Shown here one piece after another: positions 6,930 through 53,582 of a stretch of DNA of 64,000 nucleotides. The stretch's first letter is position 1. Each line of letters starts with the position of its first letter. The DNA is from Verrucomicrobiia bacterium (GTDB taxonomy: Bacteria > Patescibacteriota > Saccharimonadia > Saccharimonadales > JAGQNK01). Position numbers and translations under genes: made by a program. A model generated the notes under the pieces. The model searched no databases. It had not been told where the DNA came from and saw only the letters and a list, made by a program, of their open reading frames with translations. The DNA lies in NCBI GenBank assembly GCA_035489575.1, contig DATHJY010000013.1:155346-219345 (forward strand). The letters run 5' to 3'.

Positions 6930-7265
6930 CTCCTGAAGTTCCACTGAATAAACCCAGAAACTCTTATTTAAACAGTGCATTCCCCACATACAAGCCAGTA
7001 CGCGGTTGGCCAAACATTACTAGCCAGTAGCTCCCAACTGTCTGGGTCCTGCGGGATTTATTATTGACTTAAAAGATTGCAGGGCCGCAAACAGGTCCTC
7101 GGACCGCAGGCGGCTGGGAGCTACTGGCTAATCAGTTTTGGCCAAAGCGTACGTGACTTCCATGTGGGGAATGCCGCCACGAAACGTGGATGGCTTACCC
7201 CACCTCCGACCAGATCAGGCTTTCCAGAAACTGATTGGGTGGCTGGTCAAGGCTACCGTAATGGT

Positions 7266-8257
7266 TCAATACCTTCGCACCACCAGTCCGAGCGGCGAAG
7301 CCGCGAGCTGGTGGAAAGAAGGGATAATGAACCATATGCCATACACCACTAATCCCAAACTCCCCCGCCTGCGTATGCAGGCTGTGCTCATGGTTCGCCG
7401 TGGCCACAGTGTGCGAGCGGTAGCTCGCCACTTTGGGTACAGCCACAGCACCGTGTCCCGCTGGGTGGCTCGTGCTCCGTTCGATGGACGAGAAACCATC
7501 CCCACACTCCGCAGCAAACCCAAGTCCCATCCCCGGGCTTTGGCCCCAGGGCTTGTGTCAGCCATTGTGGAGGAACGCTTGCGCACCAAGCGCTGCGCCG
7601 AGGTGATCCAGGCGAGCCTTGCCCGCCGTGGCATCACCGTCTCGTTGAGCAGCGTGAAACGCACGCTCAAGCGACACGAACTGGTGCCGTCCCGCAAATG
7701 GAAACGGTATCGCCCACCAGTGGCTCGGCCTCCGGCCGAGACCCCTGGTGCCCTCGTGCAGACAGATACCATTCACTTCCTGGATTGGCAGACCAAGGAG
7801 ATGTTCTACCTCTACACGGTGATTGATCTGCACAGCCGCATGGCACATGCGGCTGTGCACGACCACATCTCACAACACTGGAGCTACCAAACAATCCTGG
7901 AGGCCCAGGCCCTGTTCGGCTTTGCCTTCCAGACGGTCCAGGCAGACAACGGACCAGAGTTTGCCACTTGGCTCAAAGACATGTTGAAGAGCAAAGACAT
8001 ACAACTTCGCCACAGCCGAGTCCGCCAGTCCAATGACAATGCCCACATTGAACGCTTCAACCGGACCATTCAGCAGGAACTGCTGGGCACCAGGCCGCTC
8101 CGCGGCCAGGTGACTAAGACCAGGCTAGACGCCTGGCTCCACTACTACAACCACGACCGGCTACACCTTGGTATTGGACTTAAGACACCAAAAGAACAAC
8201 AAGAACTGGCTGCAAGACAACCGGCCTAACGGCCGGTTAGTGGTGCGAAGGTATTGA
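7266..8257 (+). mobile_element. IS481-family-like insertion sequence (boundaries tentative)
   Basis: 18-bp perfect terminal inverted repeat tcaataccttcgcaccac (7266-7283 with 8240-8257) brackets a DDE transposase. A second, outer imperfect IR pair lies at 7091-7114 and 8270-8293. No clear target-site duplication. Confidence 0.65.
7327..8229 (+). CDS. DDE transposase/integrase-core protein (IS481-like)
   Basis: N-terminal HTH (RAVARHFGYSHSTVSRW) and rve-type core (DNGPEF ... NDNAHIERFNRTIQQE). ATG 7327 is preferred to the track start at 7138. Confidence 0.85.
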   Translation: MNHMPYTTNPKLPRLRMQAVLMVRRGHSVRAVARHFGYSHSTVSRWVARAPFDGRETIPTLRSKPKSHPRALAPGLVSAIVEERLRTKRCAEVIQASLARRGITVSLSSVKRTLKRHELVPSRKWKRYRPPVARPPAETPGALVQTDTIHFLDWQTKEMFYLYTVIDLHSRMAHAAVHDHISQHWSYQTILEAQALFGFAFQTVQADNGPEFATWLKDMLKSKDIQLRHSRVRQSNDNAHIERFNRTIQQELLGTRPLRGQVTKTRLDAWLHYYNHDRLHLGIGLKTPKEQQELAARQPA

Positions 8258-11236: not shown

Positions 11237-12661
11237 ATGACAGTTAGAACCAGGTTTGCCCCCAGCCCCACGGGCTATATGCATGTCGGTGGTGTACGTA
11301 CCGCTCTGTTCGCGTGGCTGATCGCCAAGCAGAACAATGGCGTGTTTATGCTGCGGCTAGAAGATACCGACAAAATCCGCGAAGTCGAAGGCTCCGAACA
11401 GCACATCATGGAATCACTCAGGTGGCTCGGCCTGGAATGGCAAGAGGGCATCGATATTGGTGGGGCCTATGGCCCTTACAAGCAGAGTGAACGGCTGGAT
11501 ACTTATAAGGAATGGGGCCAAAAGCTGGTGGACGCCGGCAGGGCCTACGGCGACCCCTATACAGCCGAAGAAGTACAAGCCTTTCGTGAGCAAGCCAAGA
11601 CCGCCAAAAAGCCATTCTTGTTCCGCGACCACCGACCAGATAACCCACCCACGTGGGATGGCAGTCAACCCCTCCGGTTCAAGTCCCAGCCCAAAGCTTA
11701 CACCTGGCATGACGCTGTCATGGGAGATTTGTCGGCCGGCGACGAAGCCGTGGACGACTTTATCCTCATAAAATCAGACGGCTATCCAACTTATAACTTT
11801 TGCCATATCATTGACGACCTCCTGATGGAGATCACCCACATCATCCGCTCGCAAGAGTTTATTGCCAGTGTCCCCAAGTATTTAAATTTGTACGAAGCCC
11901 TGGATATCAAACCGCCGGTGTTGGCCACCGTTCCTATGGTTATGGGGCCAGACGGCAAGAAAAAACTCAGCAAGCGTGACGGCGCCAAAGATATCCTGGA
12001 TTACGCCAAGGAAGGCTATCTGCCAGAAGCCCTTATCAATTTTATGGCTACCCTGGGTTGGAACGACGGTACCGAGCAAGAGATCTTTACCGCAGACGAA
12101 CTTATTCAAAAGTTCAGCCTAGAACGGGTCCAAAAGGGCGGTGCCCATTTTGATGATCAGCGGCTGATTTGGCTAAACGGCGCGCATATCAGAAAGCTGG
12201 AACTGGACGATCTGTACCAAAAGGTCAAAGACTTTTGGCCACCAGAAGCCAAAGACTATGATGATGTTCATAAAAAACAGGTGCTTGGGCTGGTACAAGA
12301 ACGCCTAAAATACTTTGCCGAGCTGCCAGACCTAACCCGATTCTTCTTTACAGACCTACCACTCAATCCGGCACTTATCAGCGAGCACAAGCAGCTGAAA
12401 AAGCTAGAGAAAGAAACACTCAAAACGCTATTAGAAACTGCCCAAACTCAACTAGAGCAAAGCGATTTTAGCGTGGACGACCTGACCACACGCCTGAACG
12501 AACTGTTGGCCGCAACCGACACCAAACCAGCCGTGTTATTCAGCCTGGTCCGTATTGCCACTACCCAGGCCCCGGCCAGCCCCGGCCTGGCAGAGACCCT
12601 GGCCGTCCTGGGCAAAGAGGTTAGTCTGCGCCGCCTGCAAACTCAGCTTGCAGCCCTCTAG
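11237..12661 (+). CDS. gltX: glutamate--tRNA ligase
   Basis: RFAPSPTGYMHVGG (HIGH motif), KLSKRDG (KMSKS motif), 474 aa. Confidence 0.95.
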   Translation: MTVRTRFAPSPTGYMHVGGVRTALFAWLIAKQNNGVFMLRLEDTDKIREVEGSEQHIMESLRWLGLEWQEGIDIGGAYGPYKQSERLDTYKEWGQKLVDAGRAYGDPYTAEEVQAFREQAKTAKKPFLFRDHRPDNPPTWDGSQPLRFKSQPKAYTWHDAVMGDLSAGDEAVDDFILIKSDGYPTYNFCHIIDDLLMEITHIIRSQEFIASVPKYLNLYEALDIKPPVLATVPMVMGPDGKKKLSKRDGAKDILDYAKEGYLPEALINFMATLGWNDGTEQEIFTADELIQKFSLERVQKGGAHFDDQRLIWLNGAHIRKLELDDLYQKVKDFWPPEAKDYDDVHKKQVLGLVQERLKYFAELPDLTRFFFTDLPLNPALISEHKQLKKLEKETLKTLLETAQTQLEQSDFSVDDLTTRLNELLAATDTKPAVLFSLVRIATTQAPASPGLAETLAVLGKEVSLRRLQTQLAAL

Positions 12662-12688
12662 CTTCCCGCGCATAGGATGCCTAACTCT

Positions 12689-12745
12689 CTATCGTTTCGC
12701 TGCTATTACAGCTCATCAGCACAATTATTACTTTGTGGACGATAG
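12689..12745 (-). ncRNA. hammerhead ribozyme, type III (HHR-4)
   Basis: Minus-strand RNA: CUAUCGUC|CACAA-AGUAAUAA-UUGUG-CUGAUGA-GCUG-UAAUAG-CAGC-GAAA-CGAUAG. Stem III is 7 bp (12739-12745 with 12689-12695), C17 is at 12738, and the core is intact. It lies 104 nt 3' of the stop of ORF 12850-14094. Confidence 0.85.
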
Positions 12746-12849
12746 TGGCGGGTGGCCGTGAGAGGGGTGCCAAAAAAGGCAACAATCTCAGAGGACCACC
12801 CACCGTGGTAGTTGTTGACCGTCATACCAGGACGGCTAGGGGAGAGGAC

Positions 12850-14094
12850 TCAGCGGGCGTAGGGCTTGCAGACCCGGTGCCTGGTCTCTTGGAAGATCAT
12901 GCGGTAGGTCCTCTTCCGGGGTGGGCCGCCAGGACGCGAACACGACAGCAGCTCCACAGCCGCACGGGTCTGCTTGACCTGCTCACGCCGCTTCTCCTCG
13001 TCACGCTGGGCGCGAGTCTGGCGACGATCCCGCCGGCCTTCGACGATCCGCTCGTACACCTTGCCGAACACGGGAATGCCGCTGACAGCGCCCGCGAACA
13101 GAGCCAGTCCGGCAATGATGCCCAGAAGGACCAGCGGCACCAGGTGCAACAGCAGGCTCACGCCCAAGCATTCCCACCAGCTCCAGCCGAGCCAGTGCAC
13201 AACTCGCTCGTTCTCGGTCACGTGCCAGCTGCTGATCCCCAAGATGATCAGGGCAACCGCCAGCGGCGACAGGGGGTTCAGGGGCAACCGCCAGGCGGGC
13301 AAGCGACGACCCTCTCTGTCGAACCACCAGATGGAGTTGTCGGCCTGCTCGCTGACGTGCCGGATCCGATAGCGCAAGGGGTGGGCAAAGCTCTTGTACT
13401 GCAGGTCGCGCAAGCCCAGCGCAAGCCCGAAAACGACCTGGAGGGTCCGCAACAGGTAGGCCCATGGAAAGTACAGCGGGGCGTAGAGGCCCAGCAGGAT
13501 CATGCGGGCACGGCCCTTGCACTGATCGAACGCCGCGTCGTCCACGAACTTGCCGGTGTAGTCCCGGAACCACTGGGGCAACGGCTTGGCGAACATCTCC
13601 TCCGGCACCACCATGGTGATCTCGTCGAAGACCTCGTACAACAGACAGGCCTCTCGGTTGCCACGGTCATGCCGTCGCACTCGTCGAAGCTCGCCGTCGT
13701 AGTTGTCGAACACGACTCCCGGGCGGAAGACATCACCAAGGCGCCAGCTGCCGTGACCTTCATCATTCCAGATCACAGTGGCACTGATGGCGTTGTTGCC
13801 CGGCCGCGAGCAGGACACATACTGCTGGCCTTCGCTGAACGGCACGATGTACTGCTTGGTCACGCTGGAGTAGAGACGCCTCTCCTCGCCATCTCTCTGG
13901 GTGACCGAGTATGGCCGCACCATGATGAGGACGAAGGGGTTGACGATCTCGTGGTGATCCACCAGATCCTGCAGCTCGGAGGTCGGAGCACACCACGTCA
14001 CTTTGACGTTGGCTTCACTCGTCCCATCCTCGTGTATCACCGCACTGAGCTGCAACGGCTCTTGCCGCTCGGTGGGAGTAACGGTGTCAGTCAC
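12850..14094 (-). CDS. hypothetical membrane protein (high-GC island I2)
   Basis: 414-aa ORF with a GTG start preceded by GGAGG at a 7-nt spacing. Soluble N-terminal half, several TM segments, basic C-terminal tail. GC3-rich; the + strand 474-aa ORF is a shadow ORF. Confidence 0.7.
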   Translation of the reverse strand: MTDTVTPTERQEPLQLSAVIHEDGTSEANVKVTWCAPTSELQDLVDHHEIVNPFVLIMVRPYSVTQRDGEERRLYSSVTKQYIVPFSEGQQYVSCSRPGNNAISATVIWNDEGHGSWRLGDVFRPGVVFDNYDGELRRVRRHDRGNREACLLYEVFDEITMVVPEEMFAKPLPQWFRDYTGKFVDDAAFDQCKGRARMILLGLYAPLYFPWAYLLRTLQVVFGLALGLRDLQYKSFAHPLRYRIRHVSEQADNSIWWFDREGRRLPAWRLPLNPLSPLAVALIILGISSWHVTENERVVHWLGWSWWECLGVSLLLHLVPLVLLGIIAGLALFAGAVSGIPVFGKVYERIVEGRRDRRQTRAQRDEEKRREQVKQTRAAVELLSCSRPGGPPRKRTYRMIFQETRHRVCKPYAR

Positions 14095-24867: not shown

Positions 24868-24907
24868 GTCATTCTGACATAGGTGCTAGGCCTACCCTAG
24901 AAGTGAA
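24868..24907 (+). promoter_or_regulatory. conserved leader element, copy A
   Basis: gtcattctgacat-aggtgctaggcctaccctagaagtgaa is nearly identical to 25969-26012. It contains the palindrome GTCAttcTGAC, the hairpin ctagg/cctag, and AAGUGAA. Confidence 0.6.
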
Positions 24908-24951
24908 CGCAGGGCCTCCCTGCAGTTTGCGCCGTTCCCTGAGGAGGGGAC

Positions 24952-25371: not shown

Positions 25372-25863
25372 GTGGAACTATTACTCAATGCCTCCATCGC
25401 CGAGGACTCCATCCAGGACGCCGTCCCCACCATCGACAACATCGTCAGTGGTGGCCTGACCAACGGCAGCGACAAGCTGTACATCGTTGCCGGCTTCCGC
25501 AACCCGGACGGTACGGGTGGCATCCTGACCACCTTCGCCTACGGCGACAGAAGGGGATGGAAGTACCCCATCGACGACATCGCCCTCGGCAAGTTCGACA
25601 TCTCCGCAGCCACCGGCTTGCCCTCGCGCCTGGTACAGACCCAGGAACCCGAGCGTCTTCGTGACGGCGACGTCAAGTACGGCGGCAGCTGGGTCCTGGG
25701 ATCCATCGTGGTCGCCGCCTCCGGGTTTCCGTCCTACTGGGACGAGCAGATCTGTGCCATCATCTGCCACATCATGAGGGGCCGGGTGCACGTGCTGCGC
25801 GAGCGCCTAGAGAAGGCAGCAGGCGAGGACGTCTACCTCGTGCGCTCCCGGCTGGCGGCCTAG
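25372..25863 (+). CDS. hypothetical protein, possibly GlcG/DUF336-like (high-GC island I6)
   Basis: GTG start with AAGGAG 4 nt upstream; 163 aa. YGGSWVLGSIVVAASGFPSYWDEQICAI weakly resembles DUF336 blocks. Confidence 0.6.
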   Translation: MELLLNASIAEDSIQDAVPTIDNIVSGGLTNGSDKLYIVAGFRNPDGTGGILTTFAYGDRRGWKYPIDDIALGKFDISAATGLPSRLVQTQEPERLRDGDVKYGGSWVLGSIVVAASGFPSYWDEQICAIICHIMRGRVHVLRERLEKAAGEDVYLVRSRLAA

Positions 25864-25943: not shown

Positions 25944-25970
25944 AATAGAAATGTGTTAGAGTAGTATAGT
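25942..25970 (+). promoter_or_regulatory. sigma70-type promoter TTAATA-17-TATAGT for island I7
   Basis: -35 at 25942-25947 and -10 at 25965-25970. Confidence 0.45.
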
Positions 25971-26012
25971 CATTCTGACATGATAGGTGCTAGGCCTCCC
26001 CCTAGAAGTGAA
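25969..26012 (+). promoter_or_regulatory. conserved leader element, copy B
   Basis: gtcattctgacatgataggtgctaggcctccccctagaagtgaa. See copy A. Confidence 0.6.
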
Positions 26013-26061: not shown

Positions 26062-26547
26062 GTGCAAGAAGCCAAGTGGGCTGCCATCGGAGCTGTCTGG
26101 GCCGCGATCGTCCTGATCGTGTCAATCGGCGGCGGCGGCGGCGGAGTGCTGATCGTCGGCATTTGTGTGCCGCTCATCATCTTCGGCATCGTCCGTCTTG
26201 TCAATCGGTTCCGCAACAAGCCCGCCGAGAAGAAGACACTGACACCGGATGACAGGCGACGCCACGTCCGCAAGGAAGACCAAGCCACAGTGGACGCCCT
26301 GATCGACGCCGTCCAGGAACGGATCGACGACTACACCACCTCGACAGTGCCCGACTGGGAGACCTCCTACTCGCTGGTCGACAACGCCAGCAAGCAAGTG
26401 CCGAGGGCAATCGTCGAGAACGTCAGGGTCCACTTCGAGGACAACGGCTGGGAGACCGGTATCAAAGACGACGAACTCGTCGTACGCGACCCAAAGAACG
26501 CGCCCAAGCCAGCCACCCCGCCGACTGCGCCGTCCACCACCAGCTAG
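26062..26547 (+). CDS. hypothetical membrane protein (high-GC island I7)
   Basis: GTG start with AAAGGAGA upstream. Two N-terminal TM segments around a GGGGGG tract, then a cytoplasmic domain and a Pro-rich C-terminus. Confidence 0.65.
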   Translation: MQEAKWAAIGAVWAAIVLIVSIGGGGGGVLIVGICVPLIIFGIVRLVNRFRNKPAEKKTLTPDDRRRHVRKEDQATVDALIDAVQERIDDYTTSTVPDWETSYSLVDNASKQVPRAIVENVRVHFEDNGWETGIKDDELVVRDPKNAPKPATPPTAPSTTS

Positions 26548-43231: not shown

Positions 43232-44023
43232 ATGTTGAAGCTCTTCCGCAAGTGGTGGAAGTACCTGACGGCCAAGCTGTCCTCGTCGTTCAGCGAGAAC
43301 GCGGACCCCAAGGTCCAGCTGGAACAGGCTCTCATCGAGGCCCAGGACCAGCAGCGGCGGCTGAAGGAGCAGGCGGCCAACGTCATCGCCCATCAGAAGC
43401 AGACCGAGATGCGGCTCAACCGCACCATGGACGAGCTCGAGAAGGTCAACACCAACGCCGTCCAGGCCGTCAAGATGGCCGATCAGGCTGCCGTGGCGGG
43501 TGACGAGGCCAGGGCGTCGCAGTACACCAACACCGCGCAGACCTTCGCCACCCGGCTGATCCAGCTCGAGAAGGAGGTCGCCGACCTCAAGACCATGCAG
43601 CTGCAGGCGACCGGCGCAGCCGACCAGGCCAAGAAGGCCGTCTCGCAGAACGCCATGGCCCTCCAGCAAAAGCTGGCCGAGCGTCAGAAGCTGCTGTCGC
43701 AGCTGGACCAGGCCAAGATGCAGGAAACCATGAACAAGGCCATGTCGTCGCTGTCCGAGACGGTCGGCCAAGACGTGCCCACGCTCAACGAGGTCCGCGA
43801 CAAGATCGAGGCGCGCTACGCCAAGGCCAAGGGCGCCGCCGAGCTCAACGCCGACTCCGTCGAGGTCCACATGCTCGAGGTCGAGGCCGCGACCATGGAC
43901 GCCGAAGCCACGACCCGTCTGGACGAGATCAAGGCCCAGCTCGGCATCGCGACCGCCCCGGTCACCGACGCCATCCCGGCGATCCCGGCGACCCAGCCGC
44001 AGGAAGCCGAGTCGGGCAACTAG
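43232..44023 (+). CDS. pspA: PspA/IM30-family protein (high-GC island I10)
   Basis: N-terminus MLKLFRKWWKYLTAKLSSSFSENADPKVQLEQALIEAQ with long coiled coils, typical of PspA/IM30. GC3-rich; the antisense 215-aa ORF is a shadow ORF. Confidence 0.85.
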   Translation: MLKLFRKWWKYLTAKLSSSFSENADPKVQLEQALIEAQDQQRRLKEQAANVIAHQKQTEMRLNRTMDELEKVNTNAVQAVKMADQAAVAGDEARASQYTNTAQTFATRLIQLEKEVADLKTMQLQATGAADQAKKAVSQNAMALQQKLAERQKLLSQLDQAKMQETMNKAMSSLSETVGQDVPTLNEVRDKIEARYAKAKGAAELNADSVEVHMLEVEAATMDAEATTRLDEIKAQLGIATAPVTDAIPAIPATQPQEAESGN

Positions 44024-46516: not shown

Positions 46517-46577
46517 GACGGTTTATTTGGGATAGGACAGCAGCAGTCAATGCTGTGCTATCCCAAATAAACCCGTC
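46517..46577 (+). promoter_or_regulatory. long hairpin in the leader of island I11
   Basis: 46517-46535 pairs with 46558-46577 (19 bp, one bulged C). It ends 26 nt before ATG 46604. Confidence 0.45.
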
Positions 46578-46603: not shown

Positions 46604-47062
46604 ATGCCCGTGTCTTCTGCCCCCGTCACCAGCTTTCCCCAAGAGCTCCGCCGGGTCCGACCCATTGTCTGGATCGGGTCCGCGCTCGTCTGCTTCTTCC
46701 TCGGCGTGGGACTCACCCTGTGGGTGACCCATAACGACAGGATCGAGGTCGACAAAATCAGCACCGTGGTCTACAGCCATGGACCGGCCGAACGCGCCAG
46801 TTACATCGCCGAATTCACGGTGACCGACTGCTACCCTGCGGATGCCGATTTCAGCGGACCCACCTGGAGCGCAACCCAGACCGAGTTGTCCAGGAACTAT
46901 CCCTCCGCACGTTTCGACTTCCACGGTGGTGACCCCAAGGGATTCGTCACCGTTAGGCTCGACCTGGACGGCTTCAAGGAAAGTCCGGAGCTTCGATTGG
47001 TCGCCAACGACATCCACCGTGTCTTGCACAGCAAGCACGCCTGCGAGCCCCCGAAGTCCTGA
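46604..47062 (+). CDS. membrane-anchored/secreted hypothetical protein (high-GC island I11a)
   Basis: N-terminal TM segment (IVWIGSALVCFFLGVGLTLWV), then a soluble domain. Start ATG 46604, or TTG 46580 / GTG 46610. Confidence 0.6.
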   Translation: MPVSSAPVTSFPQELRRVRPIVWIGSALVCFFLGVGLTLWVTHNDRIEVDKISTVVYSHGPAERASYIAEFTVTDCYPADADFSGPTWSATQTELSRNYPSARFDFHGGDPKGFVTVRLDLDGFKESPELRLVANDIHRVLHSKHACEPPKS

Positions 47063-47109: not shown

Positions 47110-47193
47110 ATGGGTTACGTCATCGGTGTCATCGTGGTCGCAGCTGCTGCGGCCTTCGGCTGGAACAAGTACAAGCAGAGCCGCTCGGCCTAG
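47110..47193 (+). CDS. 27-aa hydrophobic peptide (island I11b); not in ORF track
   Basis: ATG preceded by AAAGGGGGG. Sequence: MGYVIGVIVVAAAAAFGWNKYKQSRSA. GC3-rich. Confidence 0.45.
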   Translation: MGYVIGVIVVAAAAAFGWNKYKQSRSA

Positions 47194-47211
47194 TCGCCGG
47201 CGTAGGTCTTC

Positions 47212-47260: not shown

Positions 47261-47368
47261 AGGCCGCCCCTTCATACATCATCAAACTTTTACAGGCTCC
47301 TGGCAGTCAGCGACCACACAGACCGCACCCTTGGTGCATTCTTTAATACCTCCTGCCAGTCCTGTACC

Positions 47369-47434
47369 CGCTTCTATGAATGTGCGATACCTTTCGCAAA
47401 ACTCATACTGATGAGTCCAAGAGGACGAAAAGCG
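47369..47434 (+). ncRNA. hammerhead ribozyme, type III (HHR-1)
   Basis: CGCUUC|UAUGA-AUG-UGCGA-UACCUU-UCGCA-AAAC-UCAUA-CUGAUGA-GUCC-AAGA-GGAC-GAAA-AGCG. Stem III is 5 bp (47369-73 with 47430-34), C17 is at 47374, and the G10.1-C11.1 pair is present. Confidence 0.9.
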
Positions 47435-47449
47435 AGTACAATTTGATAT

Positions 47450-47620
47450 ATGGAAACCAAAACAATGGTCTGGATTGGCCTAGGTGTCGGCAGTACCGTA
47501 GGGGGCTTGCTGGGTACCATGCTAGACCATGGAAACTTTCTAGGCCTGTGGTCACTAGCCCTTGGCACCCTGGGTTCACTTATAGGCATCTGGGCCGGTT
47601 TCAAACTGGCTAATATGTAA
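47450..47620 (+). CDS. 56-aa Gly-rich small membrane protein; not in ORF track
   Basis: METKTMVWIGLGVGSTVGGLLGTMLDHGNFLGLWSLALGTLGSLIGIWAGFKLANM. Backbone-like GC content; it starts 16 nt after HHR-1. Confidence 0.55.
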   Translation: METKTMVWIGLGVGSTVGGLLGTMLDHGNFLGLWSLALGTLGSLIGIWAGFKLANM

Positions 47621-47700: not shown

Positions 47701-49986
47701 ATGGCAAAAAATCTCGTTATTGTAGAAAGTCCGGCCAAGGCCAAGACCATAGAGAAATATCTTGGCAAGGATTACTCGGTCAAAAGCAGCTTTGGACACA
47801 TCCGTGACCTGCCTAAAAAAGGCATGTCTATAGATATTGCCAAAAATTTTGCACCCACCTACGAAATCAGTCCAGAAAAGAAGAAGGTCGTTGCCGAACT
47901 CAAAAAAGCCCTCAAAGGCGCCGAAGTCTGGCTGGCAAGCGACGAAGACCGCGAAGGGGAGGCTATAGCCTGGCATTTATGCGAGGCTCTCAAACTAGAC
48001 CCCAAGAAAACCAAACGCATTGTCTTCCACGAAATTACCAAGTCCGCCATAGAGGCAGCCATAGAAAACCCCCGCACCGTAGACATGAATCTAGTAGACG
48101 CTCAGCAAGCTCGACGCATCCTAGACCGTCTAGTAGGGTACGAACTCAGCCCCGTCCTCTGGAAAAAGGTCCGTCCGGGCCTCAGTGCTGGTCGCGTCCA
48201 GTCGGTAGCCGTCCGCCTCATTGTCGAGCGCGAGCGCGAGATAAAAGACTTCCAGACACAGAGCAGCTTCAAGGTTACTGCCACATTCCATACCCCAGAG
48301 AAAGCCGAGCTACCGGCAGAATTAACAGATAAGATCGTAGACGAAGAGAAGGCCGAAGCCTTCCTGCAAGCCTGCGCAGGCGCTACCTTTACCGTCAAAG
48401 ACGTCGCCACCAAACCCGGCACGCGCAACCCGGGCGCCCCCTTTACTACCTCTGTCCTACAGCAAGAAGCCGCCCGTCGCTTGGGCTATAGCGTCAAACA
48501 AACCATGACTCTAGCTCAGCGTTTATACGAAAACGGTCATATCACTTACATGCGTACCGACAGTACCATCCTGTCCGGCCTGGCTATAAAGGCAGCCGAA
48601 GACTACATCACCAAAGAATACGGTGCCCAGTATCATCAGGTTCGCCAATACAAGACCAAAGACAAGGCCGCCCAAGAGGCCCACGAAGCCATTCGCCCCA
48701 CAGACTTCCGCAAGGTAGCCGCTGGCGATGATCCCCAGCAAAAGAAGCTATACGACCTTATCTGGCGCCGCGCCCTGGCTAGCCAAATGGCCCCCGCCCA
48801 GATAGACCGCACCGAAATACTTATAGATGTCAGCGACCGCACAGAACAATTCTTGGGCAAAGGCGAGATCGTCAAATTCGACGGTTGGTTCAAGGTGTAC
48901 GGCGGCGGCAAAGAAGATGTCCTGTTGCCACCAGTACAAGTAGGCGAGAAGCTAGCGCTGCAAGCCGCAGAGGCCCATCAGACCTTTAGCCGCCCGCCAG
49001 CCCGCTATGGCGAGGCCGGCCTGGTGCGCAAGCTCGAAGAGCTGGGCATCGGTCGCCCAAGCACCTACGCGCCAACCATCAGCACCATCCAGACCCGTGG
49101 CTACGTAGAAAAGGGCGACTTGCAGGGAGAAGAACGGACAGTAGTACACCTAGCACTCCTGAAAGGCGCCGTCCTGCGCGACGAACAAACAGAGGTACAT
49201 GGGGCAGATCGCAGCAAACTCACTCCCACCTCTGCGGCAGATGTAACTACCGACTTCTTGGTTAGGCACTTCGCTTCAGTTGTCGACTATGATTTTACTG
49301 CCACCGTCGAAGAAGACTTTGACGCCATTGCTGACGGCAAGCGCAAATGGGAAGACATGCTCAAAGAGTTTTATAAAGATTTCCACGCCCTCGTGAAAGA
49401 AGGCGAGAACGTCAGCCGCGAAGAAACTTCTCAGGCACGCGTACTTGGCCCAGACCCCAAGAGCAGCAAGCCTATTATCGCTCGTTATGGCCGCTTTGGA
49501 CCAATGCTCCAACGGGGAGAAACCGAAAGCGAAGAAAAACCAGACTTTGCACCGCTTCCAGAAGGCGTAGACCTAGAGGACGTCACATTAGAGCAAGCAC
49601 TCGAGATGTTCAAGCTTCCACGCACCGTCGGCACGACAGAGCAGGGCGAGGAGATAAAATCCAACATCGGCCGCTACGGCCCGTATATCCAGATAGGCAA
49701 GCTGTTTGTGTCCATCAAAGGTCACGACCCTATGAAGATTACCGAGGAAGAAGCCCGAGAACTATACGCTGCCAAGCTCAAACAAGAGGCAGAGAGGCAC
49801 ATAGCCGACTTCGGCAAGATCAAGATACTGAACGGCCCCTATGGTCCGTACGTAACAGATGGCACGAAGAACGCCCGTATCCCCAAAGAAACAGACGCCA
49901 CAAAGCTAACAGAGACAGACGCCAAAAAAATACTGGACGAAGCACCCGCCAAAAAGCGCTTCGGCAAGCGTGCCGCTAAGAAGTAA
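47701..49986 (+). CDS. topA: DNA topoisomerase I (type IA)
   Basis: Toprim N-terminus MAKNLVIVESPAKAKTIEKYLG, the catalytic-Tyr region ITYMRTDS, and a basic C-terminal tail. Confidence 0.95.
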   Translation: MAKNLVIVESPAKAKTIEKYLGKDYSVKSSFGHIRDLPKKGMSIDIAKNFAPTYEISPEKKKVVAELKKALKGAEVWLASDEDREGEAIAWHLCEALKLDPKKTKRIVFHEITKSAIEAAIENPRTVDMNLVDAQQARRILDRLVGYELSPVLWKKVRPGLSAGRVQSVAVRLIVEREREIKDFQTQSSFKVTATFHTPEKAELPAELTDKIVDEEKAEAFLQACAGATFTVKDVATKPGTRNPGAPFTTSVLQQEAARRLGYSVKQTMTLAQRLYENGHITYMRTDSTILSGLAIKAAEDYITKEYGAQYHQVRQYKTKDKAAQEAHEAIRPTDFRKVAAGDDPQQKKLYDLIWRRALASQMAPAQIDRTEILIDVSDRTEQFLGKGEIVKFDGWFKVYGGGKEDVLLPPVQVGEKLALQAAEAHQTFSRPPARYGEAGLVRKLEELGIGRPSTYAPTISTIQTRGYVEKGDLQGEERTVVHLALLKGAVLRDEQTEVHGADRSKLTPTSAADVTTDFLVRHFASVVDYDFTATVEEDFDAIADGKRKWEDMLKEFYKDFHALVKEGENVSREETSQARVLGPDPKSSKPIIARYGRFGPMLQRGETESEEKPDFAPLPEGVDLEDVTLEQALEMFKLPRTVGTTEQGEEIKSNIGRYGPYIQIGKLFVSIKGHDPMKITEEEARELYAAKLKQEAERHIADFGKIKILNGPYGPYVTDGTKNARIPKETDATKLTETDAKKILDEAPAKKRFGKRAAKK

Positions 49987-49991
49987 AATCA

Positions 49992-50020
49992 TTGACTTTT
50001 AGCTAATTTTATACTATAAT
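49992..50020 (+). promoter_or_regulatory. consensus sigma70 promoter TTGACT-17-TATAAT for island I12
   Basis: -35 at 49992-49997 and -10 at 50015-50020. The leader hairpin GAGUG...CACUC follows. Confidence 0.65.
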
Positions 50021-50087
50021 ACACTTGAGTGATTTTCCACACTCGTCAAATGGAAATGGACCCCCAAGCACCCCTGGGAGAAACCCC

Positions 50088-50597
50088 ATGCTTTCCAATC
50101 GAACCCTCGGCCTCATGGCCGGCATCATCGTGACGCTCATCGGCATCACGCTCTGGCTCAGCTGGAACTTCGGCTACTGGAGCGACGACGGCCCGCGTGT
50201 CGACCACACCAGCCTGTTCCTGCCCAGCGCAATCTGCGGTACCCTCGGCATCATCGCCGCGGCCATCATCATGATCGCGACCATCTACGGCCCCAAGTCG
50301 GTGTACGGCAATCCCGGATTCGTCAAGCATCTCGCAAACGAGTGCGCTGGCTGGGGAGCTGTTGTCCTGATCCTGCCGTCCTTCATGGGCGCCCTCATGG
50401 CTGGGACCGACATCCCCAACAACGTGTCCAACGGTTCTGTCCCGTTCCACTGGGCCACCTTCGGCAGCTACTCCGGTAGCCTCCTCGCTGGCCTGCTGGT
50501 GACCAACCTGTTGCTGTCCCTGGTGCTGTACTTCTGGGCAGACCGGCCTGGTGACCTGACCATCGACAGCTGGCTGAGCCGAGTCGTCCAAGCCTGA
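50088..50597 (+). CDS. 169-aa 4-TM membrane protein (high-GC island I12)
   Basis: ATG 50088 is preceded by GGGAG, and the GC shift begins ~50060. The antisense 181-aa ORF is a shadow ORF. Confidence 0.7.
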   Translation: MLSNRTLGLMAGIIVTLIGITLWLSWNFGYWSDDGPRVDHTSLFLPSAICGTLGIIAAAIIMIATIYGPKSVYGNPGFVKHLANECAGWGAVVLILPSFMGALMAGTDIPNNVSNGSVPFHWATFGSYSGSLLAGLLVTNLLLSLVLYFWADRPGDLTIDSWLSRVVQA

Positions 50598-50657
50598 GGG
50601 CTGGCCCTAGGACAAGGCAACACGCCGCCGTGCATGATACCTGGAGGGTCCAGGACG

Positions 50658-50713
50658 TGAAGTGGTAGAGGTGATGGATCATCCATCGACAACCCCTCAT
50701 ACCTCCCACTTCA
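50658..50713 (+). repeat. 56-nt perfect direct repeat (copy 1), structured 3'-UTR element
   Basis: Identical to 51422-51477. Outer stem ugaagugg/ccacuuca encloses GAGGUGAUGGAU-C-AUCCAUC-(GACAACC bulge)-CCUC. Confidence 0.85.
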
Positions 50714-50720
50714 CGCCCAC

Positions 50721-50790
50721 ACAGTTTCTATGAATGTGCAGCCAACACTGCAAGAGTCATACTGATGAGTCCAAGAGGACGAAAAGCTGT
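50721..50790 (+). ncRNA. hammerhead ribozyme, type III (HHR-2)
   Basis: ACAGUUUC|UAUGA-AUG-UGCAG-CCAACA-CUGCA-AGAG-UCAUA-CUGAUGA-GUCC-AAGA-GGAC-GAAA-AGCUGU. Stem III is 7 bp including one G.U, C17 is at 50728, and the distal stem I covaries with HHR-1. Confidence 0.9.
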
Positions 50791-50809
50791 AAAACTTCTT
50801 TGACATTAG

Positions 50810-50818
50810 TGCTATAAT
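50810..50818 (+). promoter_or_regulatory. extended -10 promoter TGcTATAAT for island I13
   Basis: TG at 50810-11 and hexamer at 50813-18. The adjacent TTGACA (50800-05) is only 7 nt away, too close to serve as its -35. Confidence 0.5.
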
Positions 50819-50878
50819 ATTTTGCGAGTGATTCGTTTCTGCACTCACAAATAACCCTCGAGGCCTCTTGGAGGAATC

Positions 50879-51373
50879 ATGTTCAGCATGCTGACGTTCC
50901 GTCGCATGACACTCGCCACGCTCGGCTTGGGCGCGCTGCTTTTCCCGATCTGTTGGTTTGCCGCCTACGGAACCCAGGAATTGTCCAGGGCACCTCATGG
51001 TGACCTATTCAGCGCTGGCGTCATATCCGGCATTATCGGTGTGGTGATCGCCTACGTGCTCCTCATGGGCACCATCCATGTCGAAGATGCCGACTTCGGT
51101 GAAAGTCAGTTCCTGGGACACCTGATGGCAGCCTTCGGGATCGTCGCAGCTGTGCTGTTCGTGTTGGGCTGCATAATCGCCGGCTTCGTCTCCAGCTCCC
51201 CCGAAGGTGGTCCCATCGACACGGGCGTGTTCGGCACCATCGTCATCAGCCTACTCGCCAGCTACCTCACCACCTTTTTCGTCCTGGTGGGTGCGTTCGG
51301 CGACGAGACGTGGATCGGTGGCAAGAAGACTGACAACAACCTCTTCCGGGACGGTGTTATCAGCGGGCCCTAA
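50879..51373 (+). CDS. 164-aa 4-TM membrane protein (high-GC island I13)
   Basis: ATG preceded by GGAGG at 5-nt spacing. GC3-rich (63% GC in the first 60 nt by hand count). Confidence 0.7.
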   Translation: MFSMLTFRRMTLATLGLGALLFPICWFAAYGTQELSRAPHGDLFSAGVISGIIGVVIAYVLLMGTIHVEDADFGESQFLGHLMAAFGIVAAVLFVLGCIIAGFVSSSPEGGPIDTGVFGTIVISLLASYLTTFFVLVGAFGDETWIGGKKTDNNLFRDGVISGP

Positions 51374-51421
51374 GGCACACACTGGCCAACAGAGAGTTAC
51401 AAATCCTGGAGTACCAGGTCA

Positions 51422-51477
51422 TGAAGTGGTAGAGGTGATGGATCATCCATCGACAACCCCTCATACCTCCCACTTCA
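51422..51477 (+). repeat. 56-nt perfect direct repeat (copy 2)
   Basis: Identical to 50658-50713. Confidence 0.85.
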
Positions 51478-51483
51478 TGTCAC

Positions 51484-51533
51484 AGCTTCTACAAATGCGA
51501 TTTGTACTGATGAGTCCAAAAGGACGAAAAGCT
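51484..51533 (+). ncRNA. hammerhead ribozyme, type III (HHR-3)
   Basis: ACAGCUUC|UACAAAU-GCG-AUUUGUA-CUGAUGA-GUCC-AAAA-GGAC-GAAA-AGCU. Stem III is 5 bp and C17 is at 51489. Confidence 0.9.
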
Positions 51534-51564
51534 ATAGCCACAGAGGCAACAGAGAAGGAAATAG

Positions 51565-51593
51565 TTGACAAATACTGTTTTTATTATTAAAAT
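51565..51593 (+). promoter_or_regulatory. sigma70 promoter TTGACA-17-TAAAAT upstream of island I14
   Basis: -35 at 51565-70 and -10 at 51588-93, followed by a ~225-nt leader. Confidence 0.55.
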
Positions 51594-51820
51594 AACATAG
51601 TTTTACATGGGTTTTCACCCCTAAAACGTATTATTGACAAGCAGGCAGACAGAGCGGAGTATTGTGGGCTTTTTGTAAGCAAAGAGCACAGAATATTCTG
51701 CTCCTGTCACCACAAGAACAGACACATCCGTGGCTTTAGCCGTGGGGACTCGCAAAAGCAGGTCAAACTGCGCGAGTTAGAAGGAAATCTCAGTCCAGCC
51801 AACCGAAAGGCTTCGGCACC

Positions 51821-52081
51821 ATGAGCATCACCACCCTCGCCAGCATCCCCGCCACCTACAACACCCCCACGTACTACGCCCCCGCCTACCAGCCGCGGGT
51901 CGACCTCGTGTCGATCAGCCTCACCCTGGTGTTCGAGCGGCAGAGCGTGATCCGCCTGGGCTACGCCTGGATCGATGGCTACTTCGTCGCCATCGACCTC
52001 CTGGTCGTCACCCAGTACGCCGTGGTCATCGAGAAGACCGCCCTCCTCGTCGACGGCGACATCGTCGTCTTCATCGGCTAG
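51821..52081 (+). CDS. 86-aa hypothetical protein (high-GC island I14)
   Basis: ATG start, GC3-rich, beta-rich hydrophobic sequence. Weak Shine-Dalgarno site. Confidence 0.5.
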   Translation: MSITTLASIPATYNTPTYYAPAYQPRVDLVSISLTLVFERQSVIRLGYAWIDGYFVAIDLLVVTQYAVVIEKTALLVDGDIVVFIG

Positions 52082-52097
52082 TCGACTTCGTCGGCTC

Positions 52098-52203
52098 GGT
52101 ATGACGAGTAGGTGGGTGCGGATGTGTACAGCAAAAGGATGTGGCCTATGGCTGCAACTCTCCTTTTTCTGTTCCCCTCTGTTCACCCGCCTGCTGTCAT
52201 ACC
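52098..52203 (+). other. long-range 20-bp stem closing the 3' UTR of island I14
   Basis: 52098-52118 pairs with 52184-52203 (one bulged G and two U.G wobbles, which would be A.C mismatches on the other strand). Confidence 0.5.
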
Positions 52204-52544
52204 AACATGATTTTATAAAAAAGCATTTGACACAAAAGTAATATGCTGTTATTATATTTAAGACCTATCTGTTTTACAGAGCTGTACATAACAAGCATAA
52301 GCGTTTACGAACAGTCGAATTGTAGAGTAATATTCGCTCTAACAGATTTAGGTTGAATATTTATCCACAATTTTACAGAGATACAACATATACCTCTTAT
52401 AGCTTCCTATGCAACAGTTTAAGCATAACCGTCCATTTAGTGATACAATAGCTATATCTACAAAGGGTATTGACTCAGCAGACTATTTGTTTTACAATAA
52501 TATTAAAACTTGAGATTACCCAGACCGGGTAAGGGAAGTAAATA

Positions 52545-53582
52545 ATGACAGAAGCTAATCGAAACCGGCTGCAGATCGAAAAGATCATTACCGACATTTT
52601 GGGCACTATTGATCGCGAACGTGAACGCGAGATTATTGCACGTCGTTATGGTTTGTTCGACCGCAAAGAAACTCTCGAACAAATCGGCGAGCTTCTTGGT
52701 ATTACCCGTGAGCGCGTTCGGCAGCTCGAGAAGGCCGTTATGGCTCGTCTCAAGGCAATGGCTGACGCTGGGCAACTACCGCATATCAAAGAAGTACAGA
52801 CCCTTTTGCTCGACGAAGTTAACACTATGGGCAAAGTTGGCCGCGTAACCGACCTCAGCGGACGACTTACCAAAGACAACAGCCGCGTAGACCAGGCTCG
52901 TATCTCTTTCTTGGCAGAGCTCAGTCCTAAGCTGGCTGTCGTAGAAGACAACGACCACTTCCATCACGCTGTTGGCGTAGCTGAAGTTCACGACGAAAAG
53001 ACCATTAAAGAGCACGTCATGACTATTATTGCCGCCATCAAAGATATCGGCGAACCTAGCGCTATCGAGCATGTCACCACGACAGCCGGTAAAGAAGACG
53101 CTGAGCACGTAGCCGCTCTGGCTAGCACTAGCAAGCAGCTTGCTACCCTTAACGGACGCTGGGGCCTCGTGAAGTGGCCCATGGTCAACCCAAAGAACAT
53201 TCGTGACAAAATCTACGTTATCTTGCACGAAGCAGGGCAGCACATGCACTTCAACGAGATCTCTGAAGCCATCAAGGGTTCAGACTTCAAGCGCAAAGAC
53301 GTAACTACCCAAGCTATCCACAACGAACTCATCAAAGACAAACGCTTTGTCCTGATTGGTCGTGGTATCTACGCCCTCAAAGAGTGGGGCTACGAAAAGG
53401 GTACCGTTGCTGACATCATAGAAGAAGTCTTGCGTACCGCAAGCGAACCTATGCACCGCGACGAGATCGTTAAAGAAGTCCTGAAGAGTCGTCACGTCAA
53501 AGAGACAACCATTCTTCTGAATCTACAAGGCAAGCCGCAATTCAAGCGCGTTGCCAAAGCTACCTACGCCCTCGCTGAGTAA
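52545..53582 (+). CDS. sigma-70 region-4 HTH plus HARE-HTH-like domain protein
   Basis: REIIARRYGLFDRKETLEQIGELLGITRERVRQLEKAV (region 4.2-like). The C-terminal half resembles the winged-helix domain of RNAP delta. Confidence 0.6.
   Translation: MTEANRNRLQIEKIITDILGTIDREREREIIARRYGLFDRKETLEQIGELLGITRERVRQLEKAVMARLKAMADAGQLPHIKEVQTLLLDEVNTMGKVGRVTDLSGRLTKDNSRVDQARISFLAELSPKLAVVEDNDHFHHAVGVAEVHDEKTIKEHVMTIIAAIKDIGEPSAIEHVTTTAGKEDAEHVAALASTSKQLATLNGRWGLVKWPMVNPKNIRDKIYVILHEAGQHMHFNEISEAIKGSDFKRKDVTTQAIHNELIKDKRFVLIGRGIYALKEWGYEKGTVADIIEEVLRTASEPMHRDEIVKEVLKSRHVKETTILLNLQGKPQFKRVAKATYALAE

Follow-up and report, generated by a model that had tools for sequence, protein, structure and literature searches.

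What does a pair of self-cleaving RNAs do around a bacterial gene? The role of hammerhead ribozymes in bacteria is still largely elusive (PMC6765202), and the question is raised in a pointed form by a 64,000-nt stretch of contig DATHJY010000013.1 (hereafter the window), in which two type III hammerheads, HHR-2 and HHR-3, bracket a single open reading frame (ORF) in direct orientation. An initial annotation put forward an excisable, possibly circular RNA between the two, and, as a fallback, a part for the ribozymes in setting 3' ends and insulating neighboring cassettes from each other; it is the fallback that the evidence favors, since the upstream gene is constant and the downstream neighbor varies. 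Each hammerhead is considered to be the last element of a conserved transcription unit, with a predicted role in 3'-end formation and insulation of read-through RNA; a probability of roughly 0.6 is assigned to this reading. What is observed of these hammerheads is their sequence, fold, covariation and position, and that they are inherited together with the gene upstream. The elements concerned are listed here, with GC3 denoting GC content at third codon positions and UTR an untranslated region:

47366–47437, plus strand: HHR-1, type III hammerhead, cleavage predicted after C47374.
49992–50020, plus strand: promoter of cassette A, TTGACT-17-TATAAT (11 of 12 matches), directly past the topA stop codon.
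50088–50597, plus strand: ORF A, 169 aa, four hydrophobic segments, GC3 0.85; its 3' UTR ends in HHR-2.
50640–50714, plus strand: 3' UTR of cassette A, with a mini hairpin CCUGGA/UCCAGG (50640–50654) and a long hairpin (50657–50714).
50720–50791, plus strand: HHR-2, type III hammerhead, cleavage predicted after C50728 (C17); 55.2–59 bits with covariance model R1.
50810–50818, plus strand: extended -10 promoter of cassette B, TGCTATAAT, 19 nt past HHR-2 and aligned with the -10 element of cassette A.
50826–50846, plus strand: leader hairpin of cassette B, GAGUG...CACUC, a motif also found in cassette A and in the related stretch L211.
50879–51373, plus strand: ORF B, 164 aa, four hydrophobic segments, GC3 0.77, paralogue of ORF A.
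51405–51479, plus strand: 3' UTR of cassette B, with a mini hairpin (51405–51418) and a long hairpin (51420–51479).
51481–51536, plus strand: HHR-3, type III hammerhead, cleavage predicted after C51489 (C17); 42.3 bits with Rfam RF00008, E 1.7e-6.
51565–51593, plus strand: promoter of cassette C, TTGACA-17-TAAAAT, 29 nt past HHR-3.
51821–52203, plus strand: cassette C, without a hammerhead, with an 86-aa ORF (51821–52081, GC3 0.99) and a long 3' hairpin (52098–52203).
12688–12746, minus strand: fourth hammerhead, type III, cleavage predicted after C12738.
12850–14094, minus strand: 414-aa ORF, GC3 0.82, unrelated to the family of ORFs A and B; its 3' UTR ends in the fourth hammerhead.

Judged by sequence and covariation, HHR-2 and HHR-3 are genuine type III hammerheads for which self-cleavage is predicted. 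Reading of the region 49800–52400, with which a descriptor scan agrees, bears out the initial annotation in placing both on the plus strand with intact cores, and a recount of the interval between the predicted cleavage sites (50729–51489) gives the same 761 nt. HHR-2 contains the core CUGAUGA, a stem II of GUCC-AAGA-GGAC, and GAA with A15.1 next; its stem III is ACAGUUU/AAGCUGU with one G·U pair, and its 33-nt stem I (UAUGA-AUG-UGCAG-CCAACA-CUGCA-AGAG-UCAUA) features an internal loop and an extra distal hairpin, UGCAG/CUGCA. The core of HHR-3 is identical; its stem I is a 17-nt hairpin (UACAAAU-GCG-AUUUGUA, 7 bp with a GCG loop), and its stem III (AGCUU/AAGCU) has 5 bp with a C·A mismatch beyond. 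The helix swaps annotated between HHR-1 and HHR-2 match their description, the distal stem I helix changing from UGCGA/UCGCA to UGCAG/CUGCA and stem III changing with compensation. When both strands of the window are scanned with a descriptor, the type III hammerheads number exactly four, with C17 at 47374(+), 50728(+), 51489(+) and 12738(-). Measured against the published conserved core (C3 U4 G5 A6 N7 G8 A9, G12 A13 A14, A15.1-U16.1, H17 and standard core-adjacent pairs; PMC3088659), all four display CUGAUGA...GAA, A15.1-U16.1, C17 and standard 1.1-2.1 and 10.1-11.1 pairs. Their topology is that of type III, with three helices, of which I and II are capped by loops and III is open, and it is backed by covariation; folded alone, each of the four has the three-way junction as both its minimum free energy (MFE) and its centroid structure, and the HHR-2 fold is also the MFE structure within its 198-nt 3' UTR. 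The window hammerheads exceed chance expectation: the pattern CTGATGA-N6-30-GAAA occurs four times where 0.55 occurrences are expected, a count reached by none of 100 shuffles, and a 26-nt hammerhead core occurs three times where none is expected.

An exact-pattern scan for the core, with one genome per species, found it in six stretches, five of them in metagenome-assembled genomes (MAGs) named as candidate phyla radiation (CPR) members (Saccharibacteria, Saccharimonas, Taylorbacteria) and one in the MAG of an uncultured bacterium; the named genomes with this hammerhead subtype are mostly CPR MAGs. The MAG of the window itself is filed under Verrucomicrobiae at NCBI. Covariance model R1 was built from ten aligned hammerheads of these six stretches and of the stretch L130, with the window copies excluded; in that alignment pairing reaches 91.6%, with double changes in 13 of 18 pairs. 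Run over the window with filters off, R1 gives 63.7 bits for HHR-3, 55.6 for HHR-1, 55.2 for HHR-2 and 30.8 for the fourth hammerhead (E-values from 1.5e-16 for HHR-3 to 1.3e-6 for the fourth), and no convincing match beyond these four. In an alignment of 16 hammerheads, which is fitted to the model, 93.7% of cells are paired, against 31–44% in slid-partner controls, and double changes occur in 14 of 18 pairs, a result equaled by none of 500 shuffles. The subtype shares the full catalytic core, the three helices and the type III topology with Rfam family RF00008 (clan CL00010), from which it differs by a near-invariant stem I, GAAUGYGUAUUC, and a stem II of UCC-AAAA-GGA; HHR-1 and HHR-2 further differ by a 16-nt extra hairpin in loop 1. 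With E-value reporting RF00008 recovers HHR-3 at 42.3 bits and HHR-1 at 20.8 bits, and HHR-2 only as a partial type I match of 24.5 bits because of the 16-nt loop 1 insertion in its stem I. No other ribozyme class is found in the window by an Rfam scan.

HHR-2 and HHR-3 close two cassettes of the same build, A (49992–50791) and B (50810–51536), each of which runs in the order promoter, leader hairpin, GC3-rich gene of a four-transmembrane (4-TM) family, mini and long 3' hairpins and, last, hammerhead. Segments 49985–50795 and 50785–51545 align end to end from the -10 element through the hammerhead and have in common, in order, the -10 element, a GAGUGAUU leader hairpin, the ORF, a CCUGG/CCAGG mini hairpin, the long hairpin and the hammerhead; ORFs A and B share ~45–50% nucleotide identity and 28% amino-acid identity (E 7e-10). 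The alignment makes A and B collinear paralogues in tandem; HHR-2 thus precedes cassette B as the ribozyme of A, and the repeat period of 761–764 nt is that of a tandem gene duplication. Everything initially annotated between the two cleavage sites was found again (the body of HHR-2, the extended -10 promoter, a leader hairpin, the 164-aa ORF with its four hydrophobic segments and a structured 3' UTR); TGCTATAAT lacks a -35 element and was for this reason missed by a -35/-10 scanner.

The long hairpin stops 14 nt short of the cleavage site in cassette A, where it has no U tract, and 10 nt short in cassette B. Its 54-nt core (50659–50712 and 51423–51476) is 100% identical in the two cassettes although the proteins are only 28% identical, for which gene conversion or a sequence-specific partner is a possible explanation. 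The sequences after the 3' hairpins of A and B read CGCCCACACAG and GUCACAG; the stretches from stop codon to hammerhead (50598–50720 and 51374–51480) hold no terminator-like site, and the lack of U tracts rules out the hairpins as intrinsic (Rho-independent) terminators. They were also considered as integron attC sites; by inspection they have no R'' (RYYYAAC) or R' (GTTRRRY) boxes, the cassettes, scattered among core genes, have promoters of their own, and no integron integrase was found among the scanned window ORFs. A micro-ORF in the long hairpin (MDHPSTTPHTSHF...) is judged fortuitous, as 2 nt separate its Shine-Dalgarno (SD) sequence from the AUG and the reading frame of A closes differently from that of B. 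The basal stem of the long hairpin carries SD-like and anti-SD-like motifs.

It is with the upstream gene that the ribozyme is inherited. A word-indexed search of 5.8 billion proteins leaves ORF B, taken by itself, a unique orphan, and a profile of A and B run against 1.84 billion representatives retrieves only four further proteins, of 159–170 aa. The members of this 4-TM family for which DNA is at hand are ORF A, ORF B and those of stretches L210 and L211; all four have a hammerhead 98–131 nt past the stop codon (in L210 at 2634–2690, 61.7 bits; in L211 at 746–801, 58.1 bits), and their downstream neighbors differ, being cassette B for ORF A, the promoter of cassette C for ORF B, a small membrane gene in L210, and in L211 the ancestral spacer between topA and the sigma-like gene (~52345–52545 in the window) followed by that gene. 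The relatives occupy other positions in the same dprA/topA/sigma neighborhood: gene order is dprA, 4-TM gene, hammerhead, small membrane gene and topA in L210, and small membrane gene, 4-TM gene, hammerhead, ancestral spacer and sigma gene in L211. Their 3' UTRs share the CCUGG/CCAGG mini hairpin and the long hairpin CAUGRAGUGGUAGAGGU...ACCUCCCRCUUCAUG; the 3' UTR architecture is kept in the 4-TM family, and changes in the basal stem keep pairing through wobble pairs.

The 414-aa ORF, of a different family, displays the same arrangement. The fourth hammerhead lies 112 nt past its stop codon, at a convergent junction with gltX (11237–12661, plus strand), and the orthologues in L208 (77% identity) and L209 (43%) have a hammerhead ~100–120 nt past the stop codon, with all three stems compensated. 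This hammerhead faces convergent gltX both in the window and in L208; in the window it therefore serves no downstream gene on the same strand. Comparison of both families thus gives an upstream partner that is constant and a downstream partner that varies or is absent. HHR-1 closes an inserted cassette with ORFs 46580/46610–47062 and 47111–47194, and ends 12 nt before the ATG of a conserved small membrane gene (47450–47620). Across 14 hammerheads of the window and of CPR MAGs the layout is a stop codon, ~60–220 nt (most 63–131) and a hammerhead; the gap usually features a strong hairpin, and a TTGACA-17-TAnAAT promoter often follows the ribozyme. Other CPR MAGs carry two or three hammerheads on one strand (L123 at 480, 1904 and 4782; L122 at 6163 and 7519), spaced 1.4–2.9 kb apart and each ~60–220 nt past a hypothetical ORF. 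A spacer, GTCTGCTTGTCAT, is conserved directly 5' of the ribozyme in several Saccharibacteria copies. Hammerheads near topA were considered as a general feature and rejected, since one of 80 metagenomic topA neighborhoods (L130) has one; on present comparisons the association is with the cassette genes and not with topA. In comparative terms, the hammerhead belongs to the 3' UTR of specific gene families, where it is conserved, and its setting is chromosomal and non-phage.

Cleavage in vivo, a more stable upstream mRNA and what becomes of the downstream fragment are matters of inference beyond these observations. RNA polymerase would pass the 3' hairpin, which is not predicted to be an intrinsic terminator, and the hammerhead would then fold and cut 9–14 nt past it. 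With type III topology, the upstream product would retain no more of the ribozyme than the 7–8 nt that form the 5' strand of stem III, so the 3' end of the upstream mRNA would be defined, shielded by the hairpin and terminated by a 2',3'-cyclic phosphate; this mRNA would also be uncoupled from the next gene, which has its own promoter right past the ribozyme, or from an antisense run into the convergent gene. The downstream fragment with its 5'-OH, the 761-nt RNA included, could act as a translatable monocistronic mRNA or undergo 5'-end-dependent decay in the manner of the glmS product. The glmS ribozyme product is degraded from its 5' end via RNase J1, and RiboJ is a synthetic ribozyme insulator. 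By analogy with glmS, RiboJ and twister ribozymes in 3' UTRs, the hammerheads here may give a 5'-OH downstream fragment with a separate fate and uncouple neighboring RNA (PMC6765202); unlike glmS, they have no ligand control, and instead of a 5' UTR they occupy a 3' UTR or an intergenic spacer. A part in processing polycistronic or 3' UTR RNA has already been proposed for bacterial hammerheads (PMC3088659; PMC6765202).

Several points weigh against a role in 3'-end formation and insulation. Cleavage in vivo is a prediction, and protection by the 2',3'-cyclic phosphate is drawn from general RNA biochemistry. HHR-3 has a stem III of only 5 bp, and the MFE structure of its 167-nt context pairs that strand elsewhere; none of the four window hammerheads reaches the Rfam RF00008 gathering score (48.5 bits), which is an annotation threshold and not a biological feature. 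GC3-rich cassettes with a 3' hairpin and no hammerhead also occur, namely cassette C, the ORFs at 25372–25863 and 26062–26547, and pspA, so the ribozyme is not required for such genes. The basal stem of the long hairpin (CAUGRAGUGGUAGAGGU/ACCUCCCRCUUCAUG) is conserved in sequence across distant genomes, such as that of L210; an exonuclease block needs no such conservation, and this hints at an additional function of the hairpin. Finally, HHR-1 and the L210 hammerhead end 12–17 nt before the ATG of a conserved gene, where a role in the downstream mRNA is possible.

Among the alternatives the one that survives best, itself rather improbable, extends this last point to the hammerheads in general: the ribozyme would serve the downstream gene, either by trimming read-through or polycistronic RNA to a constant, folded leader with a 5'-OH, as RiboJ does, or by marking that RNA for 5'-end-dependent decay. 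Type III geometry does keep the body of the ribozyme on the downstream fragment; the small membrane gene that follows HHR-1 and the L210 hammerhead lies beside a -10-like TACAAT or TATACT, and the L125 hammerhead stands directly before the promoter of an rpoB-like gene. Nevertheless, it is the downstream partner that changes while the upstream gene is constant, the fourth hammerhead has no downstream gene on its strand, and most downstream genes have their own promoter past the ribozyme, so their main transcripts never contain it. The small membrane gene at 47450–47620 has its -10-like hexamer exactly 7 nt before the ATG and no Shine-Dalgarno sequence (window 47437–47452; L210 ~2690–2708; L133 ~440–458), which suggests, as far as sequence goes, that its mRNA is leaderless; the -10 element abuts the 3' end of the hammerhead in both the window and L210.

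Somewhat less probable again is that the hammerheads are baggage of horizontally moving cassettes, for example of phage origin, and have little function in the host, perhaps acting as recombination hot-spots. The window is a chromosome segment with dprA, topA, a sigma-like gene, ftsQ/murG, gltX, a sortase, histidine kinases, pth and similar genes; the dprA-topA-sigma synteny is conserved in relatives, and the spacers within it are insertion hot-spots, which would suit such baggage. From topA to the sigma gene many relatives have ~250–350 nt, versus 2559 nt here, where a block of 2.36 kb starts with the promoter of cassette A right after the topA stop codon and ends after the hammerhead-free cassette C. 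Composition points the same way, as ORFs of GC3 0.77–0.99 stand among core genes of GC3 ~0.55, each with an AT-rich promoter, a leader and a long 3' hairpin, and four of them end in a hammerhead. These high-GC3 ORFs are:

78–800.
12850–14094, minus strand, the 414-aa ORF.
25372–25863.
26062–26547.
43232–44023, pspA.
46610–47062, in the HHR-1 cassette.
50088–50597, ORF A.
50879–51373, ORF B.
51821–52081, in cassette C.

Hammerhead-linked ORFs exceed their locus median by 0.22 in GC3 (nine loci, with 11 ORFs tagged by crude ORF calls; p 1.6e-6) and are in this sense compositionally foreign. The GC3 offset of the 4-TM family is kept in three genomes, which simple recent horizontal transfer does not easily explain. 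Modules are also mosaic: HHR-2 shares with HHR-1 an unusual stem I, with a 16-nt inserted hairpin and an identical 14-nt 5' part, while the hairpin upstream of HHR-2 is that of cassette B, a pattern that suggests recombination between hammerhead cassettes. Against the hammerheads as baggage, their cores are intact and their stems compensated at protein identities down to 43% in the 414-aa family and to 28% or less in the 4-TM family, a divergence over which such preservation argues for purifying selection on the ribozyme.

As a rule, the hammerheads of bacteria are associated with phage genes, which would also suit baggage of phage origin, and the nearest precedent is of this kind: in bacterial prophage regions multiple hammerheads flank single genes or short gene blocks, constructs of ~2 kb representing polycistronic RNA were cleaved, mRNA processing was proposed, and circular or spliced products were not detected (Perreault et al. 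2011, PMC3088659). The present locus, like L122 and L123, resembles those clusters in its several hammerheads of one polarity that flank individual, mostly hypothetical genes. It differs in being chromosomal, among housekeeping genes (dprA, topA, sigma, gltX) and without phage genes, in that each downstream gene has its own promoter, and in the fixed position of the ribozyme, 9–14 nt past a conserved 3' hairpin and co-inherited with specific gene families. In a scan of the window proteins no phage genes were found near the hammerheads, which have neither a prophage nor an integrase neighborhood, and scans of IMG/VR recover neither the 414-aa gene nor hammerheads of this subtype; a prophage origin is ruled against on these grounds.

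The proposal from which the question arose, that HHR-2 and HHR-3 cut free a 761-nt RNA which an RtcB-type ligase circularizes into a stable circular mRNA or a mobile intermediate, is now considered very unlikely. Because the two ribozymes have the same polarity and no terminator separates the cassettes, a 761-nt fragment ending in a 5'-OH and a 2',3'-cyclic phosphate is a likely by-product, and compatibility of the ends allows a circle. The 5' strand of HHR-3 (ACAGCUU) also pairs perfectly over 7 bp with the 3' strand of HHR-2 (AAGCUGU) in a chimeric stem that is present in the circular MFE structure, and hairpin and hammerhead together form a direct repeat of ~125–140 nt around ORF B. Every structural and comparative test that was run nonetheless disfavors the circular RNA. 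The 761-nt unit is out of phase with the conserved module, which runs from promoter to hammerhead; the same gene families carry single hammerheads, one of them at a convergent junction; ORF B has its own promoter, so its mRNA needs no excision; and a circle would rebuild an intact chimeric hammerhead and therefore re-cleave. Its fold is branched and not rod-like (17 hairpins, 63% paired, z -1.8), and the unit is single-copy, with the hairpin present twice in 64 kb and ORF B unique in the word-indexed protein search. The block past topA starts with a promoter rather than a hammerhead and ends past cassette C, boundaries that an RNA-mediated, hammerhead-to-hammerhead insertion would not give. 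Circular products were looked for and not detected in the one bacterial study (PMC3088659). The back-splice junction of CACAGCTTC to TATGAATGTGCAG (51489 to 50729) has no match in IMG/VR contigs, which is weak evidence, and neither a reverse transcriptase nor RtcB was found among the scanned proteins of the window. If true, the proposal would amount to a DNA-encoded, ribozyme-made circular RNA coding for a membrane protein in a bacterium.

The further likening of the unit to retrozymes and viroid-like RNAs fares no better. The statement that paired type III hammerheads are the processing signature of such RNAs omits the closest precedent, the clustered gene-flanking hammerheads of bacteria (PMC3088659). 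Retrozymes have target-site duplications (TSDs), ~350-bp long terminal repeats (LTRs) and a non-coding, promoter-less core with a primer-binding site (PBS) and a polypurine tract (PPT), and are multi-copy with highly self-paired circles (de la Peña et al. 2020, PMC7761336). The locus shares with them two direct type III hammerheads ~700 nt apart in short direct repeats, and the ends expected, a 5'-OH and a 2',3'-cyclic phosphate. Unlike theirs, its central region is protein-coding with its own promoter, the 164-aa ORF having a paralogue and four remote homologues. Its repeats of 125–140 nt are the 3' UTRs of tandem paralogues, originating in gene duplication, and not LTR-like repeats bounding a mobile unit, although TSD, PBS and PPT were not specifically searched for. 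It is moreover bacterial, with no dispersed copies within 64 kb or in the protein search, a circular fold that is neither rod-like nor quasi-rod, and no reverse transcriptase seen in the window. Neither what the unit encodes nor the origin of its repeats, its copy number, the shape of its fold or the boundaries of the insertion fits, and a retrozyme- or viroid-like unit is rejected.

That the four are chance matches or dead relics that no longer cleave is scarcely credible, for although all score below the Rfam gathering threshold and HHR-3 has a short stem III, the independent model R1 finds them with E-values between 1e-16 and 1e-6, their cores are intact at every position, the core-adjacent pairs are standard and covariation is strong.

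With 3'-end formation and insulation as the preferred reading, the window and its relatives provide an unusually clean comparative case, in which a ribozyme is inherited with its upstream gene and has the next promoter or a convergent gene after it; the idea of a hammerhead as 3'-end former and insulator becomes directly testable. No new category is opened, as gene-flanking hammerheads and the idea of mRNA processing date from 2011. In the searched literature no paper pairs hammerheads with Patescibacteria, Saccharibacteria or CPR, and R1 covers a CPR hammerhead subtype that Rfam thresholds miss.

A few features elsewhere in the window may be added. The leader of the HHR-1 cassette (46520–46573) forms a near-perfect 23-bp hairpin, 96% complementary with an 8-nt loop. 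The only mobile-element gene seen in the window encodes an IS-type transposase (7138–8229, plus strand) with an rve integrase core and HTH domains; it is ~4.5 kb from the fourth hammerhead and ~39 kb from HHR-1 to HHR-3. The PspA/IM30 gene (43232–44023, plus strand) has a GC3 of 0.95, and its nearest homologues (~80% identity) are labelled Acidimicrobiales (Actinobacteriota), which suggests a recent transfer from a high-GC actinobacterium. A 5' leader motif, GTCATTCTGACAT(G)ATAGGTGCTAGGCCT.CCC(C)TAGAAGTGAA, stands at ~24868–24915 and ~25968–26012, upstream of two different GC-rich ORFs, and may be a shared regulatory leader. At 52227–52340 a strong promoter (TTGACA-17-TATTAT with TG) is followed by ~100 nt without an obvious ORF and then by the ancestral topA-sigma spacer; this segment may be a remnant cassette or a small RNA.

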